This document shows, one piece after another, positions 22,408 to 57,181 of a stretch of 64,000 nucleotides of DNA (position 1 is its first letter; each line of letters begins with the position of its first letter). The stretch is taken from contig WFVD01000008.1 in assembly GCA_015491865.1 (NCBI GenBank), positions 138,002 through 202,001 of the forward strand. The letters run 5' to 3'. Made by a program: the position numbers and the translations under genes. The notes under the pieces were generated by a model. The model was not told where the DNA came from. It saw only the letters and a program-made list of their open reading frames with translations, and did not search any database. This DNA comes from Gammaproteobacteria bacterium (GTDB taxonomy: Bacteria > Pseudomonadota > Gammaproteobacteria > SZUA-140).

Positions 22408-25400
22408 ATGCCATTCAGGAACGCTATTTCACCATATGAGCAGGGTTTAAGTATGTTGGTCACGCAACAGTCACAGCGCTCACATCAGCAGCGAAATGCC
22501 ATCATCCGCTGGTTGTCTGTCGCTGTACTCGCTTTTGCTATTTCTGCTGAACCCTTCGCTGCCCCTGATATTGAAGCCGCTTTCCCCGCTGCAACCAATC
22601 TGGTCACAAACGGCCCTGTGCTGGCAAGTGCCTCGTTTGGCTCGAATAGCGGGGAGACGACAGGGCTTGGTGTCGGGCTGGATGCGGCGACCGCACTGAT
22701 TAACCCGCGCTTCCCAAAAGTGGCCGGCGGAGCCTCTAGCCAGATATACGCGGTTATTGAAGATGGCTTTGGTGGTTGGGTGATCGGGGGTGATTTCGAT
22801 ACGGTGGGCGGTGTGGCGCTAAGAAACCTCGCACATATCCAGGCCGACCTCAGTGTCAACAGTGCCTGGCGGCCCAATCCTGATGGTGTTGTCAGGGCGC
22901 TGCTGTTCCATACCGGCAGCAAGGGGCTGCGGCTGCTGGTCGGGGGGGATTTTACCCAGATCCATGGCGAGGCTCGTAGCTATTTTGCTGAGCTCCATAC
23001 CGGTTCGATATCCAAACCAGTGACCTCGCTGGATCTTTTTATAGATGCGCCGGTACATGCGATTGCCAAAGCAGATGAGACGCTGGTTTATATCGCCGGT
23101 GAGTTTACTGTTGTGCGCGGAACAGGTCCGCGAGATGATGATGGCGATGGGCATCTTGATGTCGATATTAATGGTTGGGTCAAGGTCGATATGGATGGCG
23201 ATGGCGTTTTTGAAACGTCGATGAATATTGTTGGTGATGGTGTCAATGATATTGATGTCGATGGCGATGGTGATATTGATATTGATGTGACGCTTGATGG
23301 TGTAGTGGATGCAGATATCAATGTCGATTATAGCCAGCCAGATCCAGCGCCATCATTAGATGTGCCGTTTGACCAGACCTATCCGCAGGTTTCTCGTCAA
23401 AGGATCGCCGCACTTGATCTGGATGCAGAAAGTAACGGCATGGTGGTGGATGAATGGAACCCGAATGCTGATGGTGTTGTGCGTACGATAGCGCTTGCAC
23501 CTGAGCGTAGTAAGCTCTATGTCGGCGGAGACTTTTTGAATATCTCCGTTGGTAGTGGTGCCAATATCAGTCGTCAACGCATCGCAGCATTGAATACAGC
23601 CAATAATATCAACATTATTACGACCTGGAATCCTGGTGGAGCATCAACAAATTCAATTTATGCAATGTACCTCGAAGAGTTCGGGATTGATAACGAAAGC
23701 GGTGAAGAGAACGGCCTGCTCTATGTGGGTGGTGATTTTACGGAGATAGGGGGCAAGTCACGTCAGAACTTTGCAGTACTTGATATCGCGCTGGCGGTGA
23801 ACAATGCGAATGCGTGGGATTTGCAGTTTGATGATGTTGTGCTTGCCATTGCGCGGGCAGACGAGACCTTCTTCATTGGCGGCGCGTTTAATTCGGTGAC
23901 GATAGAGGGTGTGGTGGAGAGTGACTTTAAACGCCTTGCTGCATTCAGGCGTGGCCCCGGAACATTGATTACTGCCTGGAACCCGGATGTTAATGGTGAT
24001 GTGAGTGCGCTAGCGGCCAGTGAGACTACAGGCATCGTCTATGCTGGAGGGAAGTTCAATTCTGTGGGTGACACATCGCGGCTTTACATTGGCGGCGATT
24101 TTACCTATATCGGGCCGAGTACCGGTAGCGGCGTGGTGGTGGATACCTCAGCCGGGATTGTGCAAAGCGGGTGGCCTGAGGTGAATGGTGATGTTTATGC
24201 AGCGATATCCGATGGTAGTGATGGTTGGTACATCGGCGGTAGTTTTAGTGAGATTACGGATAGTGTGTCGACCTATACCCGCAATAATGTGGCTCATATT
24301 AGTAGTGCGGGCACGGTGACCAGCTGGGATCCCAGTACGAACGGTGCTGTTCATGCGATGGCAGTGAACGGTACTTCGGTTTATATAGGAGGCGATTTCA
24401 CAACGATCGGTGGGCAGGCGAGAAACAATATTGCACTCACCGATAGCAGCGGCACGACGACCAGCTGGGATCCCGGTGCGAACGGTGTTGTTCGTACATT
24501 GGCAGTGAGTGGTACTTCTGTATACGCAGGAGGTGACTTCACGACAATCGGTGGGCAGGCGAGAAACTATGTTGCACTCATCGATAACAGCGGCACGACG
24601 ACCAGCTGGGATCCCGGTGCGAACGGTGTTGTTCGTACATTGGCGGTGAGTGGTACTTCTGTATACGCCGGGGGCGACTTCACGACAATCGGTGGGCAGG
24701 CGAGAAACCATGTTGCACTCATCGATAACAGCGGCGCGACGACCAGCTGGGATCCCGGTGCGAACGGTGTTGTTCGTACATTGGCAGTGAGTGGTACTTC
24801 TGTATACGCCGGGGGCGACTTCACGACAATCGGTGGGCAGGCGAGAAACCATGTTGCACTCATCGATAACAGCGGCGCAGCAGCGAGCTGGGACCCCAAT
24901 GCCGATGCGCCCGTTTCAGAACTCCTGTTCGATAGTGGCACCGTCTATGTCGGCGGTGATTTTAGCTTTATCGGTAGCCTATTACGTAATCGCGCGGCAG
25001 CATTTACAGTGGGTAGTAGTGTGGCAACGGCCTGGGCCCCTTCGGTTGGCAATAGCGTGCATGCGCTGTCGCCCGGTGCGGCGGGTATCTTTATTGGCGG
25101 TGCCTTCTCTTCCGTGGGTGGGGTTACACGAGAGCGAATCGCAGCCATCGATTTAAGTAGTGGTGGGCTTGATGCCAGTTTTAATGTTGGCACCAATGCA
25201 AGGATAACGACCATGCAGCTAAGCGGTGATGGCACGACACTCTATGTGGGCGGGGAGTTTACTTCCGTGGGTGGGCAGCCGCGTAACCATATCGCAGCAT
25301 TAAACACAGAGACCGGTGCAGCATACCCCTGGAACCCTGACATTAATGGTACTACATCAACAACCGCAGCATATGACATTGAACTGTCCGCAGCGGGCGA

Positions 25401-49565: not shown

Positions 49566-51014
49566 TTATGGCATGAGTGGGCGCAGCGTCAGTACTGCGG
49601 CTAGAATCAGTAGCGGAAAGACGAGGTTAAGGCGAAAACCGGCTTTAATCATCTCGCTCATTGAGACCCGTTCAGTACCAAAAACGATCGCATTGGGCGG
49701 CGTGGCTACCGGCATCATAAAGGCGCAGGAGGCCGCGAGCGTTGCGGTGAGCAGCAGCTGGGTGACATCGTGATCGCTGGCGATGGCAACCGCGGCCAGG
49801 ACCGGCAGCATCACCTGGGTGGTGGCGGTGTTGCTCGTCACCTCGGTGAGGAAGACGATCACCAGTGCAATACCGAGCAACATCAGTGGCAGCGGCACAG
49901 CGCTAAGAAACTGGAGTTGCTGCCCCACCCAGAATGAGAGGCCCGAGCTTTTCATCCCCATCGCGAGGGCAAAGCCGCCGCCGAGCAGCAGGATGATGTC
50001 CCACGGTAGACGGCCGATGGTCGATTTATCCATGATCGGTTTGCCGTTGCGGATCGGCACAAGAAACAGAATGAGTGCCGCGATGATCGCCACGGTGCCG
50101 TCATCGACCCCCTGGTAGGGTAGCAGCGAGGCCCAGCCGGGGATGTCGATCCCTTCACCCTGTATCCCCTTGCGTGTCATCCAGGCGACGGCGGTTATCC
50201 CTAGCACCCAGGCGACAAAGCGTTCATCACGGCGCATGGTGCCGAGGCTCTGCAGCTCGGCTGAGATCCCCTCAATCGCCGCGTTAGACCAGTTCAGGTT
50301 GCGCACGCGTCGCCCCAGATAGAGCACTACGACCGTGATACCTGCGATTACCACCGGAACGCCAACCATCATCCACTGAAGAAAGCTGGGCACATCATCA
50401 GGCGCTGCTGCCCGCATGTTTTCGAGGAAGACCAGGTTGGGCACCGTGCCGACTGGTGTCCCCATGCCGCCAATGTTGGCGCTATAGGCGATGGTTAGTA
50501 GCAGGGTGCTGGCCATCACCACCATCGTTTTACCATCGAATACCCTGTCGAGGCGGGTCAGTACGGCGATGGCGATGGTGGCCATCAGCATGGTGGTTGC
50601 GGTGTTGGAGATCCACATCGACAGAAAAGCGGTTGAGAGGGCAAAGCCCAGGAGTATCTGAAGCGGGCTGCCGTGCAGATGTGACAGAATGACGAGCGCA
50701 ATGCGTTGATGTAGCCCGGTGCGCTCCATTGCCTGCGCAATCAGAAAGCCGCCGATAAAGAGAAACATGATGCTGCCCATGTAGCGCGGCGCGGTCTCTT
50801 TGGCGGTGGCGATGCCCATGATGGGAAAGGCGATCAGTGGGATTAGCGCAGTAACGGCGAGCGGCACGCATTCACTGAGCCACCAGATCGCCATCCAGAT
50901 AACCACACCCAGCATCGATGCGGCGAGAGGGTGGCCGGGGATCTCGACAAAGACAGCGACCGACAGCCCCAGCAGTGGCCCAAGCAGGAGAGCGATCTGT
51001 TTAACGCGTATCAT
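49566..51014 (-). CDS. DASS/SLC13 family anion:sodium symporter
   Basis: 482-aa polytopic protein with the duplicated hairpin motifs typical of DASS (...SNTATT... occurs twice). Confidence 0.8.
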   Translation of the reverse strand: MIRVKQIALLLGPLLGLSVAVFVEIPGHPLAASMLGVVIWMAIWWLSECVPLAVTALIPLIAFPIMGIATAKETAPRYMGSIMFLFIGGFLIAQAMERTGLHQRIALVILSHLHGSPLQILLGFALSTAFLSMWISNTATTMLMATIAIAVLTRLDRVFDGKTMVVMASTLLLTIAYSANIGGMGTPVGTVPNLVFLENMRAAAPDDVPSFLQWMMVGVPVVIAGITVVVLYLGRRVRNLNWSNAAIEGISAELQSLGTMRRDERFVAWVLGITAVAWMTRKGIQGEGIDIPGWASLLPYQGVDDGTVAIIAALILFLVPIRNGKPIMDKSTIGRLPWDIILLLGGGFALAMGMKSSGLSFWVGQQLQFLSAVPLPLMLLGIALVIVFLTEVTSNTATTQVMLPVLAAVAIASDHDVTQLLLTATLAASCAFMMPVATPPNAIVFGTERVSMSEMIKAGFRLNLVFPLLILAAVLTLRPLMP

Positions 51015-51042
51015 ATTGCGCGGAGTCTGAAATTAAGCGGGA

Positions 51043-51483
51043 TTAATCGGTGCCCGCAATGCCTTCGGGAGCCTTCCAGCTATTAACCTTTTTAAATAAA
51101 AACTTAAGGTGTGGCCCATCGAATTTCTTATCGGTGTAGTACCAGAACTCGGAGGCACCGCTGCGGATCTTGAGCGGTTCACCAAGCAGATCACGCACAT
51201 CCTCATAATTCATGCCGACACGGAGGTGAATCCAGTTGGTTGGGTCGCTCCACTCACCGGGATTCGTCGGTGGCGGTAGTGAGCTTTTGGTTTTGATGAT
51301 GGTGGTGCGGGTCACCGTAGCCGGTTTTTTCTCAATGCTGTTGAGGCGCTGTTCCAGCTCATTGAGGCGCTGGGTGAGTTTATCGATCTGCATCTGCAGT
51401 GAACGGTCAGATGATGCCAGAGTGGGAGTGGTGAGCAACACGCTCGCCAGCAAGGCTGTGCCAAAATATGGGAATATTTTCAT
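51043..51483 (-). CDS. Secreted protein with an N-terminal coiled coil and a BamE/SmpA_OmlA-like C-terminal domain
   Basis: Signal peptide MKIFPYFGTALLASVLLTTPTLA from ATG 51483. C-terminal GMNYEDVRDLLGEPL...FWYY resembles the BamE fold motif. Confidence 0.5.
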   Translation of the reverse strand: MKIFPYFGTALLASVLLTTPTLASSDRSLQMQIDKLTQRLNELEQRLNSIEKKPATVTRTTIIKTKSSLPPPTNPGEWSDPTNWIHLRVGMNYEDVRDLLGEPLKIRSGASEFWYYTDKKFDGPHLKFLFKKVNSWKAPEGIAGTD

Positions 51484-51534
51484 CTGTCCAGCATAGTGAA
51501 ATCGTGTTGGGTGGTCAATCGGCATGCGGTGGTT

Positions 51535-51572
51535 TACAGTGTTCCGATACCCCACCATCGGAATGCTTGATA
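51535..51572 (+). CRISPR. Solitary CRISPR-repeat-like sequence; downstream arm of a 23-bp perfect inverted repeat (CCCCACCATCGGAATGCTTGATA) with imperfect extension
   Basis: Positions 51550-51572 are exactly reverse-complementary to 55168-55190. Similarity extends with indels to about 38 nt. It lies 3 nt from the stop of the cas1 stub. Only a single copy is present, so there is no array. Confidence 0.4.
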
Positions 51573-51575
51573 AAC

Positions 51576-51812
51576 TCACTTCGCTTGCAGCATCACTGAG
51601 CTAGGAGTAATCAGTACCGCTGCTCCGGCCTCAGCCAATATGCGTAATACGTTGACTGTCAGGCTGATGGTGTGGTGATGCAAACACAGTACGGCGATGT
51701 CAGCAGGTAGTACATGCGCGTCCTCATGATCCTGTCGTGCAATCCTGATGCGGCCCAAATCCACCGACAGGTGGGCGGGGTTTTCGATGAGAAGGATGCG
51801 GTTATCAGGCAT
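51576..51812 (-). pseudogene. cas1: cas1 5' fragment (first roughly 75 codons only)
   Basis: MPDNRILLIENPAHLSVDLGRIRIARQDHEDAHVLPADIAVLCLHHHTISLTVNVLRILAEAGAAVLI matches the conserved N-terminal beta-sandwich of Cas1. The start overlaps the cas9 stop (TAATG), as in type II-C operons. The ORF terminates after 78 codons, where Cas1 is normally about 300 aa. Confidence 0.6.
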
Positions 51813-54800
51813 TAGTCCACCAGTTTGAGGCGGGCAATACTTGTGCCGCCAACCACGCGCCGTCCCTGTTGTTTTTGCGACAGTTTGTGTTGTCTCATGG
51901 TTGCATCCATATCCGCGATTTCTCTCGCTTCCGTTATTGGAATGAGAAATATCTGCAGCCCCTGTTCTCTGAAGGATTTCACAATAAAGTGATCCCCGTC
52001 TTTTGTATCTTCCATCGTGTCACCCTTAAAAAATCGTCGGGTATTGGGTGGATTCGGTTGATCTTTCTTTTGCAGCGCCTCGGGTTGTGTAACCAGGCGG
52101 GGTTTCGGTTTCTCTCCAGGTGTTTCCGTTAATTCAAGATAAGCGTAACCATCGTATTGCAGGTATTTGTAGTGAGGCTTGTCAGGTGTGCTGTGGCGAC
52201 TATTGAATTCAATTTTCCAGGCGGTGTTTGCTGAGTCGCGCAACATTTTTACCTGCCGAATAACATTGCGATATCGGGGGTGCTGGATATTCGTTAATGC
52301 CTCTTTTGCAGTTTTTCCTGCTGCAATGCGTTTATCAAAAACACTTAGCACTAATCGGCGTGTGTCAGGACTGGCGATTTTCTCTAACTTTTTGCGCACA
52401 GCATCGGGTTTGCTTTTGTCGTCAGCCAGTGTTTCAAGATTCTGGCGCAGTGTAAGTTGCTGTTTGGGATCAGCATTGGGGTCTTTGTCATTTTCCACCC
52501 AGGTGACGCCATAAGCAGTGCCTTTGAACAATGACCCACCTATATGCCGCTCTGGTTTGTGGACGATGTGATGTTCACGTGTCATCTCAAGCGCCTGAGT
52601 ACGAATATCTTTTAATGGGGGATTGATGGAGAGTTTCAGTTTGATGTGTTGATCCGTTTGCGCACGTTCGCTTAAGGTCTTGTAATTGTGCGCCATCTTT
52701 TGATACAGGCCGCGGGAAGTGAGGGCGATGACTAATGCGTCAATGACGTGATGCCGATGGTCGATACGTTTTTCGATCATTTTGTCGGTGCGTTGAACGC
52801 CGCTGTGATTATTGTTGTGACCTTCCCAGTAGGGTTTGTATTTTTTAAATTCTTCTTCATTAATCAGGTTTTTTTCGGTATCAAAAACGGGCAGGCCAGA
52901 CTCGTAACGAATTTCCGGGATAACGGTATTTAGCCCCCATATTTTTCTCAGGTGCGCGGTCATTGCACCGCGGCTGACCGCAACATCGGAACAGACCGTA
53001 CGCATCCACTGTGCCGCCAGTTTGGAAATCCACGAGGTTTCGTGATACTGACGATTGGTGAAATCGTCGATGATGTCACTGTTGATTTTCTCTGCTTTCC
53101 AGTCTTGCAGGGTGAGAAAACGTGCTTTGGCAAAGCGTCGTTTCTTTTCCAGCGCTTTGGCTCGTTCGGTGATAATTTTCCATTTGTTAATGTCATCACC
53201 CCCGGCTTGCCAGGGGGTGCGGTTTCCCTTTTCATCATTACAGGAACGGTGTGATAGCATGAGGTGGTCTTGTTGGCGGCCAACGCGGGTGAGGGTACGC
53301 GGAATGATATGTTCCAGATTGGTTTCGTTGCCATCCACTGCTGCGCCGAGACTGATCCTTCGTTCACAGTAGGGGCAATTGGTATCCTGTTCCTGCCACA
53401 GCCGCCAGCGGAAGATATTAGTGGAGGTTGCGGGATGGCTGTTTTTCTCCAGGTCTTCCCTGGCCTTTTTGCGTTCGCGTTGATTTTTATCTATGCCTTT
53501 TTCAATTTCACCGCGGCGTTTTAATCCCAACCCCATGTCACGACTAAGCTCGATGACCACTTCCGCAGGTGGCTCGCCACCCATGGCATCAATAGCATTG
53601 TTGACGGCGTAGCGCATTTGGCGCAGGGCAACATCAACCACGATGTTGCCGGTAGGTCAATGGGAATCAAGATGTGTGGATAGTTCAGCTTTTTCTTCAG
53701 GTTTTGGATGACAGGCTAAGATGGCGTCGTATTCATCCATGCCTCCGCGCATTTTTTCCGTGAGTTTTTTAATGCCTTGATGGAATAGGCGCTACGTCCA
53801 CTATCGAATCCCATTTTACTGAGGCGGTCAAATTTGCCGCTGGTAACCATGGCGTTAATGAAGTTCACCATGTCAGGAGAAAATTTACGTAATTCCCCAG
53901 GTTTTCCATCTTTGCCTTTACCGCGATACTGGAGATGCCAGTCTTTACGATCCACTTCCTGTGGTGACCCCAGGTCAGCAAGAAAGTTGATGATGCTGAT
54001 TTGTGTGCCTTCGTTGAGTGCCAGCCATTGTTCGGCAAGCCCTAATTTTCCCACCGCTTTCAGAGTGCTGTTGCCTTTGAGTTCAGGTCGGCTGGGCCGG
54101 TCAAAATTAAGTCCGCGTTTGTCTGGATTTGGGCAGCCTGCTTTATTTAGTGCCGTGTTAATTTGCAAGAAAGTTGCTTTCTCTTTTGTCGAGAGCAACT
54201 TGCGGATAACGGTTTTTTGCTCTGGTGTAAGTTGTTGGGAACGACGCCCCATGCCCCAACGCAAATCGGCAATCTGTTTTTCAATGCGAAACGCTTGTGC
54301 GGCGGGTTGACTCATGGGGGCCCGCGGCAGATTGGGTTCCAATGGACATTGCCCCACCATCGCAGTAACGGATTTCAGTGGCCGCTGGTAAAAGATAACG
54401 TCGCGGAAAACCTCTTTGAGTGGATTGTCTTTGTATCGCTCATTCAGGCCTTCGTATAGCCCATTCAGAATTGAATGAGTCACTGACTGCACTTTCCAGA
54501 TTTGTTCAAACTCGGCTTCCACCATTTCCCGGCTGACGTACAGGCCATGGGGTTTTGCTTCTTTCAGCTTGAGGGTTTCGCCGTTGTTGAAACGGTGCAG
54601 CAGGTATTGCCCAAGCCACTCACCATTCGCATCCTGCATTAGTTGTTTGAGCTGAGTGATGCCGCCTTCAACCTGGCCTTCATCGCCTTCTTTACTTAAC
54701 CTGAAAGCCTCCCGCATAACCACGCCGTTTGGACATTCGAAAAAATACCCTGGCCAGATCATCCAGCGCAATGGGTTTTGTGGTTGCTTGGCTGCGGGCC

Positions 54801-55105
54801 TCATGAAGACGTCGGCCGTTATCAGGGGTGATAGTCTGAGGGTCAATGTCGAGTAGTTCACAGATGGCCGCAAGATCATGTAAACGGCTGGCGCGGCGGT
54901 CGATCAGTCGTCGGGTACGTCGGGCCATGCCCCGGCCAGATGCCTTGGTGCTACCAATACCACCTCCGGTAGCAGCTTCTACCGGCTCCTGAAAGATATG
55001 CGCGCTGTGATAGGCGATATTTTCGGGCGTGGATTCGTTGTCCAGTGTGATACAGGCAAGACCAACCGATGCGGTGCCAAAATCAATCCCCAGTCGATAA
55101 GGCAT
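51812..55105 (-). pseudogene. cas9: Type II-C cas9, full-length footprint (about 1098 codons) but disrupted by two frameshifts and one in-frame TGA
   Basis: Three collinear ORF fragments. Fragment 55105-54692 carries RuvC-I (YRLGIDFGTASVGLA), the Arg-rich bridge helix (ARRTRRLIDRRASRL) and the RGY motif. Fragment 54879-53716 is the REC lobe. Fragment 53641-51812 carries RuvC-II (VVIELSRD), HNH (CPYCERR...LEHIIP...SCNDEKGNRTP), RuvC-III (HRHHVIDALVIA) and the PI domain. See findings for the exact lesions. Confidence 0.8.
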
Positions 55106-55167
55106 TTTTTCTCTCCATGATTTATTGTGCTTGCCATTACACCACATGGTTGCTAGGGTTTTCCTGT

Positions 55168-55251
55168 ATCAAGCATTCCGATGGTGGGGACTATCGGTAA
55201 CAAGTGTTTATCACACCGATACAGAACGGCTGCTTCGGCAGTCGTTTTTTT
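55168..55251 (+). ncRNA. Candidate tracrRNA: anti-repeat (upstream arm of the inverted repeat), then a linker and a strong intrinsic terminator
   Basis: 55168-55190 is the reverse complement of 51550-51572 (extended pairing to about 55208). The terminator at 55226-55251 has an 8-bp stem ACGGCTGC/GCAGTCGT with a UUCG tetraloop followed by T7. It lies 63 nt upstream of cas9 and is divergent from it. Confidence 0.45.
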
Positions 55252-56234
55252 ATGATTGAATATTGTGTACACCGCTTGCCGAATCAAGTTCTTTCATTGA
55301 TTTTAGGGAGTCTGATTCTGCGTGCAAATGTGTTTTTCAGCGTTGTGCTGGGTGGAATCTTTAGCTAGAATCCGGTCTGTTTGTTAATAAGTGGATTCAA
55401 TGCTTTTTACAACATACAAGGCGGCAGATGCTCTCCTGGTGGCAATCAAGCCGACCTGATGACCTTCCCATTCCATGCGGATATATTTTCCTACGAAACA
55501 CCAGTTGAATTTTGTTGTCTGAGATACCGCTAGGCGGTGAGGGGCATCGATGAGATTATCGACCCTTCTTTGAATAAATACCGGTAAACAGTCGCTAAAA
55601 AATGATGGCGTGCCAGGATGGCAGAAGGCAATTTGATGCGGTTATTTTAGGGCTGCCTTATACTGCAATTCATTGGTAGCAGATCTGGTGGTGAAATATG
55701 GGCGAGCTATATTGATCTCACCGATTGCTCTGAACCGATTTTGAAATACGAGTATGAACGGCAGTTAAATACCCATCTAAGTTAGTCAATAATAACCATA
55801 TAAAAAGTAGTTGATTTATAGTGGGTGATCCTCTAGACTCTTTATCGCACGACAGACATTCCATGCATCTCCTCCTCTCTCGGGGTCGAGTGATTCGGCC
55901 CCGGGCGGTGCAAGGGATGGTGATTGACCGGCACTCCCGGCTGTGATGAGCATCAGGTTATTGGTTATGGATTATCGATGCCTGGGCTTTACCCCCCCTG
56001 CGCAGCCGGGATGTGTCAAATTTCTACGGTTAACTATAAAACACTAATCCCCGCCTGTATTTTTGTTGCCTTCCCTCTTTGTGAGCAATGCGCGATGGAC
56101 TGGAGCGCCAGGTTCTTCAGGGCGGCAACCTCGACGTGAGATGAATCAATGAGTTAAGTGATGATGTCGCTGCTTCACGCCTCGTCATGAGAATAAATCA
56201 GAGGTTGCTTAGTAACGTAGCTGACGCTCAGATG

Positions 56235-56268
56235 AAAAAAAACGCCACTCTGAAATCAGAGTGGCGTT
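56235..56268 (-). terminator. Rho-independent terminator of prk
   Basis: On the minus strand a 10-12-bp perfect stem (ACGCCACTCTGA / TCAGAGTGGCGT) is followed by U8. Confidence 0.65.
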
Positions 56269-56311
56269 TGAGCAGATCACATTAAAACACTCGCCTGAAA
56301 AGCGGTGGCTA

Positions 56312-57181
56312 TTATGCGCTGCGTTTATTTTCCATCAGTTCATGCACCACTGGATTGAGGATGACCTCCATTGCCAGTCCCATTTTGCCGCCAGGCAGTA
56401 CGATGGTGTTGGGGCGAGACATCCACGAATCTTTTAGCATCGAGAGGTAGTAGGGGAGGTCGTGTTTCTCTGGGTGTCTGAAGCGGATCACGATCAGGCT
56501 CTCATCAGGTGTTGGAATATCACGTGAAATAAAAGGGTTAGAGGTATCCACCACGGGCACGCGCTGGAAGTTAATATCGGTGCGCGAGAACTGAGGGGTG
56601 ATGGTTTTAACATAGTCAGGCATGCGACGCAGGATTGTATCGGTGACCGCTTCTGCCGAGTAGCCGCGCTGTGCGGTATCACGGTGAATCTTCTGAATCC
56701 ACTCCAGATTAACAATAGGCACCACGCCGACGAGCAGGTCAACCCACCTGGCGACATCCACCTCTTCGGTGACGACGCCGCCGTGCAGCCCTTCATAAAA
56801 AAGGATATCACTACCTTCAGGGACCGGTTCCCACGGGGTGAAGGTGCCTGGCTCCTGTTTGTAAGGGGCGGCTTCGACTTCATCATGCAGGTATTTACGC
56901 ATCTGACCGGTGCCGGTTTCGCCATAGCTCCTGAAGAGCTCTTCAAGCTTGTCGAGAATATTGGCTTCAGGGCCAAAATGGCTCAGGTCTTTACCCTCTT
57001 TCGCCGCTTCAGCAACTTTTGCCTTCATTTCCATGCGATCATAGCGATGGAACGCATCGCCTTCGATTACGGCGGCGTTGATCCCTTCGCGATGGAACAT
57101 ATGCTGGAAGGCGTTTTTTACGGTAGTGGTGCCAGCACCTGATGAGCCGGTCACGACAACGACTGGATGTTTAGCAGACAT
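56312..57181 (-). CDS. prk: Phosphoribulokinase
   Basis: P-loop VVVTGSSGAGTTT and a PRK family body (...EGDAFHRYDR...). Confidence 0.9.
   Translation of the reverse strand: MSAKHPVVVVTGSSGAGTTTVKNAFQHMFHREGINAAVIEGDAFHRYDRMEMKAKVAEAAKEGKDLSHFGPEANILDKLEELFRSYGETGTGQMRKYLHDEVEAAPYKQEPGTFTPWEPVPEGSDILFYEGLHGGVVTEEVDVARWVDLLVGVVPIVNLEWIQKIHRDTAQRGYSAEAVTDTILRRMPDYVKTITPQFSRTDINFQRVPVVDTSNPFISRDIPTPDESLIVIRFRHPEKHDLPYYLSMLKDSWMSRPNTIVLPGGKMGLAMEVILNPVVHELMENKRSA

Follow-up and report, generated by a model that had tools for sequence, protein, structure and literature searches.

Does the short element that lies beside a broken cas9, complementary to a solitary CRISPR repeat on the far side of the gene, belong to a tracrRNA gene, and if it does, is that RNA still at work or is it what remains of a lost immune system? 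We addressed this question in a 64,000-nt stretch of DNA (hereafter the window), using comparison with related loci (designated by L numbers), RNA folding and covariation. Our results support the reading that positions 55166–55251 of the plus strand are the tracrRNA gene of a type II-C locus whose ancestral order was a tracrRNA divergent from cas9-cas1-cas2-array, and which is now a relic; we put the probability of this reading at about 0.88.

An element with the anatomy of a tracrRNA diverges from cas9

As criteria for a tracrRNA we adopted those of Chylinski et al. 2013 (PMC3737331): an anti-repeat, an intergenic site adjacent to cas genes, and a promoter and Rho-independent terminator of its own. 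In the window, the anti-repeat pairs with the repeat, the element occupies an intergenic position next to a type II cas operon, and it is flanked by a terminator and a predicted promoter (Table 1). It lies upstream of cas9 on the opposite strand, with 61 nt between it and the start of that gene at 55105. The first transcribed base is predicted to be G55166, and the anti-repeat begins one base later. An earlier note on this DNA had placed the start at 55168; all the elements that it had listed are present, but its start is 1–2 bases late.

The predicted fold of the 86-nt RNA has a free energy of -32.9 kcal/mol (z = -5.5). Compared with its counterpart in L056, the tracrRNA of the window differs by one substitution, at 55242, and by one additional T in the terminal run. 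The closest relatives differ from it by 1 substitution in 86 nt, against 76–78% identity for the cas9 DNA. The substitution (C55242U) turns a G-C pair of the terminator into a G-U pair, so that the pair is kept.

Table 1. Features of the locus, with positions in the window
Feature	Position	Strand	Parts	Basis
Predicted tracrRNA gene, primary transcript ~85 nt	55166..55251	+		covariance model R1 match
Predicted tracrRNA promoter	55131..55159	+	-35 TTGCCA 55131-55136; 17-nt spacer to -10 hexamer; extended -10 TGCTAGGGT 55151-55159	read from sequence and conserved -10 offset
Anti-repeat	55167..55201	+	upper stem 55167-55189; AC bulge 55190-55191; lower stem UAUCGG 55192-55197; U bulge 55198; AAC 55199-55201	duplex folding and co-change with repeat across loci
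Stem-loop 1 (nexus-like), GUG-UUUAU-CAC	55204..55214	+		compensatory changes
Conserved linker ACCGAUA	55215..55221	+		kept in 41/44 family members
Rho-independent terminator, 11-pair stem, UUCG loop, U7	55223..55251	+	core stem ACGGCUGC 55226-55233; UUCG loop 55234-55237; 3' arm GCAGUCGU 55238-55245 with one G-U	terminator scan and covariation
Solitary CRISPR repeat GTTCCGATACCCCACCATCGGAATGCTTGATAAACT	51541..51576	+		identity to related arrays
Orphan 30-nt stretch, probably last spacer without its 3' repeat	51577..51606	+		related arrays' period 66 = 36 + 30
cas9 pseudogene (type II-C)	51812..55105	-		Pfam, tblastn, alignment to 5 intact relatives
cas1 remnant, first ~69 codons; ORF to stop at 51576	51607..51812	-		DNA homology to cas1 of 7 relatives

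The anti-repeat pairs with the whole of the surviving repeat

The two arms of the inverted repeat, 51550–51572 and 55167–55189, are 100% complementary over 23 nt, the plus-strand sequence of the latter being TATCAAGCATTCCGATGGTGGGG. This confirms as a perfect inverted copy what the earlier note had called a 23–38-nt element complementary to a solitary downstream repeat. That note had also held that a widespread 23-mer would speak against a tracrRNA; within the 64-kb window, and with up to 3 mismatches allowed, the only copies are the two arms themselves, and none of 100 shuffles gave a match. When bulges are admitted, complementarity extends over the entire 36-nt repeat. Co-folding of the element with the lone repeat, the check that had been proposed, gave a duplex of 32 bp (RNAcofold and duplexfold) with two bulges on the tracrRNA side, a 2-nt AC and a 1-nt U. 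At -55.4 kcal/mol it is far stronger than the duplexes obtained from 500 dinucleotide shuffles of the repeat (-19.7 ± 3.3 kcal/mol; z = -10.9). No other 36-mer of the window pairs equally well, with the exception of the antisense of the tracrRNA element itself.

Furthermore, in about 20 related loci changes in the repeat are matched by changes in the anti-repeat. The same A/G change is found on both sides in L003 and L086 and a triple change in L010; across loci, AAGCA becomes AGGCA, AGGCG or AGGUG in repeat and anti-repeat alike. C-to-U changes leave G-U wobbles in the repeat:anti-repeat pairing of L013, L020 and L073, and L106 carries an identical 1-nt deletion in both partners.

The same element precedes cas9 in 46 related loci

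The closest loci were reached through the Cas9 fragment, although a scan of genome contigs with this fragment yielded a single short contig that had neither an array nor a tracrRNA region. More distant ones came from a metagenome scan whose pattern spanned the bulge, which kept the repeats of arrays from matching. The scan returned 120 stretches, mostly chance matches; a clear homologue of the element is present in 44 of them, as well as in L002, L003 and the window's own record. In 46 related loci this element is found divergently, just upstream of a type II-C cas9 of ~1085 aa. Most of these relatives have an uninterrupted Cas9 of ~1080–1100 aa followed by cas1 and cas2. Loci with cas9, cas1 and cas2 only, with neither csn2 nor cas4 and with an adjacent array, as expected of type II-C, include L001, L002, L003, L056, L076, L096 and L108 among others; the window holds the remnants of such a locus.

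An array of at least 3 repeats of 36 nt lies beyond cas9-cas1-cas2 in 20 of the 46 loci (19 distinct), with its crRNA sense on the tracrRNA strand. These arrays have a period of 65–68 and contain up to 49 repeat copies, and the distance from tracrRNA to array is mostly 4.5–4.7 kb (range 4.1–5.4). In the window, the distance from tracrRNA to repeat is 3.6 kb, which means that ~1 kb is missing. L002, at 75% protein identity, has the same 23-mer immediately ahead of cas9, and its array contains the exact 36-nt repeat at least 18 times with a period of 66. L003 (59%) has the same layout with three repeats; an A-to-G change in its repeat recurs in its upstream element. That element and repeat are both antisense to the cas operon, as in characterised II-C loci, had been suggested earlier; indeed, the tracrRNA and the crRNA-sense repeat share the plus strand here, and the arrays of the relatives are oriented likewise.

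Each family element begins with the anti-repeat and the AC bulge, continues with UAUCGG-Y-AAC-AAG and a variable stem-loop, and, after ACCGAUAC, closes with a hairpin, whose loop is usually UUCG, and a U run. Its stems covary. Paired cells make up 92.9% of the tracrRNA stems in the family versus 73.5% in shuffles, and cells changed on both sides number 157 versus 52.5; 12 of the 19 stem pairs have changed on both sides somewhere in the family. Among 500 shuffles, none reached the observed percentage of paired cells, either of two double-change counts or the covariation score, and 1 reached the number of extra pair types. When the 3' partners were slid by 1–3 columns as a control, pairing fell to 32–53%.

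As an independent approach we built a covariance model (R1) from 34 distant family members, leaving out the window and its 6 nearest relatives. R1 matches 55166–55249 on the plus strand over its full length (model 1–95 of 95) with 91 bits and E = 1.4e-17; its one other match in the window is to the lone repeat, at 22 bits. Rfam gave no relevant match at E <= 5 in 50500–56500, its tracrRNA family included, and none at gathering thresholds in the whole window; family membership therefore rests on our own alignments (A1 and A2) and on R1. A full-text literature search for the repeat sequence retrieved no relevant paper. The layout proposed in the earlier note, an anti-repeat, a linker and a terminator divergent from cas9, is upheld by the 46 related loci, by covariation, by the position of the promoter and by the independent model. 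The anatomy, homology and covariation shown here support its identity as a tracrRNA gene.

Promoter, stem-loop, linker and terminator

The predicted promoter has TAGGGT as its -10 hexamer, preceded by TG. A TANNNT motif is found 13–15 nt upstream of the anti-repeat start TATCA in 38 of the 44 distinct loci, with flanking sequence that is otherwise unconserved, and a purine occupies position -1 in 41 of the 44. The consensus promoter scan did not list this promoter, whose -10 matches the consensus at 3 of 6 bases only, and we regard it as a predicted promoter that is weak by consensus.

The only consensus match upstream of cas9 on the cas9 strand, at 55300–55328 (minus strand), lies beyond the tracrRNA terminator. 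A transcript started at this consensus match would carry the full tracrRNA antisense in the cas9 leader. Further out, between the tracrRNA and phosphoribulokinase genes, L128 and L129 differ from the window by duplicated or inserted ~50-nt copies at 55722–55776.

Stem-loop 1 can also adopt an alternative register in the window, GUGU/ACAC, reaching to 55216. Compensatory changes affect each of its three base pairs, with 3, 17 and 16 double-change cells in the family. The linker that follows occupies columns 71–77 of alignment A1. ACCGAUA corresponds to nt 4–9 of the crRNA repeat and is complementary to UAUCGG (55192–55197), the anti-repeat strand of the lower stem; free tracrRNA could, by this complementarity, fold back on itself through the linker. 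In L002 the linker reads AUUGAUA, which is G-U compatible with the lower stem, and the motif is absent from L036, L098 and L132. The lower stem itself was fixed by the search pattern; among distant loci, L127 keeps it with one G-U change. One paper on the structure of the NmeCas9-sgRNA complex yielded no relevant description of a feature like ACCGAUA.

The intrinsic terminator lies 20–30 nt past the anti-repeat and is just as the earlier note had described it, with 8 bp, one G-U pair, a UUCG loop and U7. Its stem can be extended to 11 pairs from 55223, and the T run covers 55245–55251. Terminator-like sites are not enriched in the surrounding 5 kb (5 found versus 6.3 expected). We count the terminator as evidence because it is conserved, and not because a scan found a hairpin: in the family, both partners have changed in 8 of the 9 pairs that could be aligned.

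A lone repeat without a guide

The lone repeat agrees at 36 of 36 positions with the consensus of the array repeats in L002, L096, L099 and L100, and the 64-kb window holds no other copy of it and no array. On its 5' side is chromosomal flank, onto which the promoter end of a BamE-like gene faces from the opposite strand, and the consensus scan predicted no plus-strand promoter there. At its 3' end (51568–51576) it contains TGATAAACT, an extended -10-like motif. TGnTAnnnT ends the repeat in 20 of the 22 related loci with repeats, while other positions vary, and this ending looks like a promoter inside every repeat, of the Neisseria type. The candidate promoter of the window's own repeat would direct transcription into the orphan spacer and onward, in antisense, through what is left of cas1 and cas9.

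The 30-nt stretch that follows the repeat had no blastn match in any of our loci, and an exact search of viral contigs was likewise negative. We also considered that it might be a remnant of the leader-like flank proximal to cas2; by eye it shows no clear similarity to the conserved flank of the relatives, and this origin was rejected. A crRNA consists of a spacer followed by a repeat. Since the stretch lies 3' of the lone repeat, the repeat gives no guide. The earlier proposal that, with an intact cas9, tracrRNA and the single repeat would form a minimal Cas9 ribonucleoprotein therefore fails: cas9 is broken, the spacer-length stretch 3' of the repeat has no repeat of its own, and no promoter is predicted upstream.

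cas9 is frameshifted, and cas1, cas2 and the array are cut away

Nucleotide alignment to 5 intact relatives locates two lesions in cas9. At ~54694, a +1 insertion accompanied by a substitution gives rise to a TAA stop; at ~53771 there is a -1 deletion. A 21-nt insertion at 54449–54469 is in frame and harmless. The gene is divided into minus-strand ORF fragments of 151, 387 and 609 aa. Pfam recognises Cas9_a on the 387-aa fragment and HNH_4 and RuvC_III on the 609-aa fragment. The 151-aa fragment has no Pfam match; it starts with a RuvC-I-like YRLGIDFGTASVG and aligns to residues 1–137 of an intact relative's Cas9. In a tblastn search, the intact 1087-aa Cas9 of L076 aligned in three collinear pieces, in frames -1, -2 and -1. 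The fragments are otherwise clean and their catalytic motifs are present.

The -1 lesion lies on A_AAA_AAC (53765–53771), and the +1 lesion (54690–54697) makes AAG-TAA-A, with GGAGG 10 nt upstream. A_AAA_AAC is a classic -1 slippery heptamer, and we judged its occurrence at the lesion to be a coincidence rather than a sign of programmed frameshifting. Rescue of cas9 by programmed frameshifting was rejected: re-pairing is not possible at the +1 site AAG-UAA-A, the locus has in any case lost cas1, cas2 and the array, and one assembly has lost a further internal part of the gene (see below).

Downstream of cas9, a 78-aa ORF on the minus strand corresponds to the N-terminus of Cas1, which in intact L001 has 301 aa. 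Homology to cas1 ends at 51607 in 7 of 7 relatives, and cas2 and the array are absent between the cas1 remnant and the BamE-like gene. A single deletion took away cas1 from about codon 70 onward, cas2 and, apart from a lone repeat and a stretch of spacer length, the entire array. The end of the deletion, at 51606/51607, is within 1–2 nt of a spacer/repeat boundary, and cas1 homology to the 7 relatives starts exactly 30 nt, the length of one spacer, from the lone repeat. This placement may be due to chance or to a repeat-directed event. With cas9 frameshifted, cas1 cut, cas2 and the array gone and the spacer-length stretch left without a 3' repeat, the window holds no functional CRISPR-Cas9 system.

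The lesions are shared by independent assemblies and decay looks recent

Three full-length assemblies (ENA ERZ23495365 and ERZ23495238 and NCBI GCA_015494135.1; L128–L130, the last being the NCBI record) carry the same frameshifts, the same junction of cas1, spacer and repeat, and an identical tracrRNA. They are 99.8–99.9% identical to the window and have SNPs of their own. L130 has in addition a deletion of ~175 bp inside the cas9 pseudogene, at positions 53990–54164 of the window. The sharing of the lesions and the extra deletion indicate that the lesions are real and that the gene is drifting, and the dead cas9 of the earlier note is thus borne out by two frameshifts that recur in other assemblies. 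L005, a Logan contig of SRR10312503, corresponds to 51604–54653 with 3 SNPs, and confirms only the second frameshift and the stretch of cas1 that it covers. One of its ends falls 3 nt from the deletion junction and the other ~40 nt before the +1 frameshift would be reached; such ends could reflect a branched assembly graph, as would arise if the sample contained intact as well as deleted alleles.

Decay of the locus looks recent. Given that the cas9 fragments are clean and the decay apparently recent, the intactness of an 86-nt gene does not argue for selection that still continues. Sister assemblies at 99.8–99.9% identity serve to confirm the lesions and represent no evolutionary time over which selection on the tracrRNA could be tested. 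For this genome, what is documented is a recent loss of CRISPR immunity, and only that, mapped base by base.

Relic, working RNA, mobile cassette or artefact

With neither a protein partner nor a crRNA to guide, the tracrRNA of this genome is a relic. To judge from its sequence it is probably still transcribed; we infer that it would have been bound by Cas9 and that it has lost its function here. An RNA that had kept its function could serve a second intact type II system elsewhere, or act as a Cas9-independent sRNA, for instance by pairing with antisense transcripts that contain the lone repeat or the cas9 leader. The state of the gene agrees with this: promoter, anti-repeat, stem-loop 1 and terminator are intact and the same in the three full-length assemblies, the sole change with respect to the closest relatives preserves its pair as G-U, and the lone repeat matches the consensus throughout. 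Our view of the genome consists of the 64-kb window and an overlapping 22-kb excerpt of the same record (L004), so a second cas9 or array could lie elsewhere. However, the lesions of cas9 are few and look recent, and an element of 86 nt is expected to remain unmutated over such a time by chance; moreover, the window contains no second repeat or array, and neither a target nor a partner was found. Continued function is thus unlikely. A more specific version, in which the tracrRNA was kept as a working RNA after the loss of the cas genes, with ACCGAUA as a switch on the lower stem and a self-gated sRNA acting on repeat-like host transcripts without Cas9, we hold to be very improbable.

Two further readings concern the locus as a whole. 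A perfect 23-nt inverted repeat flanking a 3.6-kb segment is also what a mobile cassette carrying cas9 would show, the arms being its terminal inverted repeats and the hairpin an unrelated terminator. In the relatives, however, the downstream arm is a unit of a 36-nt, period-66 CRISPR array, which led us to reject the arms as termini of a mobile element; the spacing of the arms differs from that of the relatives by ~1 kb owing to the deletion, there is no transposase between them, and the upstream element runs well past the repeat into conserved, co-varying RNA stems. The chance of such a cassette is close to nil. An intact locus with a working tracrRNA, in which frameshifts and deletion are errors of assembly or sequencing, could be suspected in a metagenome-assembled genome such as this one, where one of the frameshifts abuts an A6 run and L005 ends within 3 nt of the junction and ~40 nt from the +1 frameshift (ends that could reflect population variants). 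Against this, the same ORF pieces and an identical junction recur in three full-length assemblies that differ by SNPs, and L005 agrees where it covers them; the +1 lesion combines an insertion with a substitution and is not an error in homopolymer length; and cas2 and the array are simply absent between truncated cas1 and the BamE-like gene. An artefact is highly improbable. We conclude that a structurally intact tracrRNA gene beside a broken cas9 and one surviving repeat is an ordinary piece of a decaying immune locus.

Other loci and repeats

Two more distant loci differ from this family. In L131 (6047–11200; Cas9 38% identical, 3.5-Mb contig), a shortened cas9 of 961 aa is accompanied by cas1, cas2, one solitary repeat and two small unannotated ORFs of 109 and 104 aa. 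A phosphoribulokinase gene lies 72 nt upstream of this cas9, and phosphoribulokinase is also the neighbour on the tracrRNA side in the window. Model R1 found no tracrRNA at L131, which looks like an independently degraded locus. In L132 (6724–10195; Cas9 34% identical, 303-kb contig) there is no cas1, cas2 or array nearby, and topoisomerase, methyltransferase and ankyrin-repeat genes surround cas9; a weak tracrRNA-like match (28 bits) lies divergently upstream of it. This may be a stand-alone Cas9 with its own tracrRNA on a large extrachromosomal element.

Elsewhere in the window, at 24310–24876, four tandem 141-nt units with 92% identity, unrelated to the CRISPR locus, are probably a coding region for repeat domains.

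Proposed working in intact relatives and comparison with known systems

By analogy with characterised type II systems (PMC3737331, PMC5965381), the tracrRNA of the intact relatives would work as follows. A sigma-70-type promoter would start transcription at the G that immediately precedes UAUCA. With its 5'-terminal ~36 nt the RNA would pair with each 36-nt repeat through a 23-bp upper stem, the AC bulge and a 6+3-bp lower stem, and the nexus-like AAG-stem-loop, the conserved ACCGAUAC linker and the one terminator hairpin would form the scaffold bound by Cas9. The crRNAs would be transcribed on this strand as well, opposite to the cas genes, and would probably start at candidate extended -10 promoters within each repeat, as in N. 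meningitidis. The 40-odd sequences and their covariation define the guide-RNA scaffold of a type II-C Cas9 clade, of which we found no published description, characterised by a Cas9 of ~1085 aa, the 36-nt repeat GTTCCGATACCCCACCATCGGAATGCTTGATAAACT and a short tracrRNA of 85 nt. This scaffold could serve to build single-guide RNAs for the intact relatives.

In the type II-C systems of Neisseria meningitidis and Campylobacter jejuni, the array has been shown experimentally to lie on the strand opposite the cas operon (PMC3737331), and promoters are embedded in the repeats (PMC5965381); their crRNAs arise independently of processing. The relatives of the window resemble them in their minimal cas9-cas1-cas2 set, their 36-nt repeats, the array opposite the cas operon and the extended -10-like motif, TGnTAnnnT, at the 3' end of the repeat. 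The best match of the HNH/RuvC-III part among solved structures is Nme1Cas9 (E = 1e-15), a match limited to the ~240 aa of the HNH/RuvC region. Unlike in Neisseria, the tracrRNA lies here upstream of cas9 and divergent from it, and its 3' scaffold is short, with just one terminator hairpin following the small stem-loop and the conserved linker; the Cas9 proteins are distantly related, and the repeat and tracrRNA sequences are, by inspection, unrelated.

The position recalls the type II-A tracrRNA of Streptococcus pyogenes, which also precedes the cas operon and is encoded on the opposite strand (PMC5965381), and so does the logic of the molecule, with an anti-repeat of ~25 nt or more, scaffold hairpins and a terminator. 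In contrast to that system, csn2 is missing here and the array is on the other strand relative to the cas genes. Finally, the window belongs with the defective type II loci of Chylinski et al. 2013, and L131 is another of this kind. It differs from them in that the tracrRNA is the best preserved part while cas9, cas1, cas2 and the array are damaged, and in that each lesion can be mapped base by base against intact relatives.
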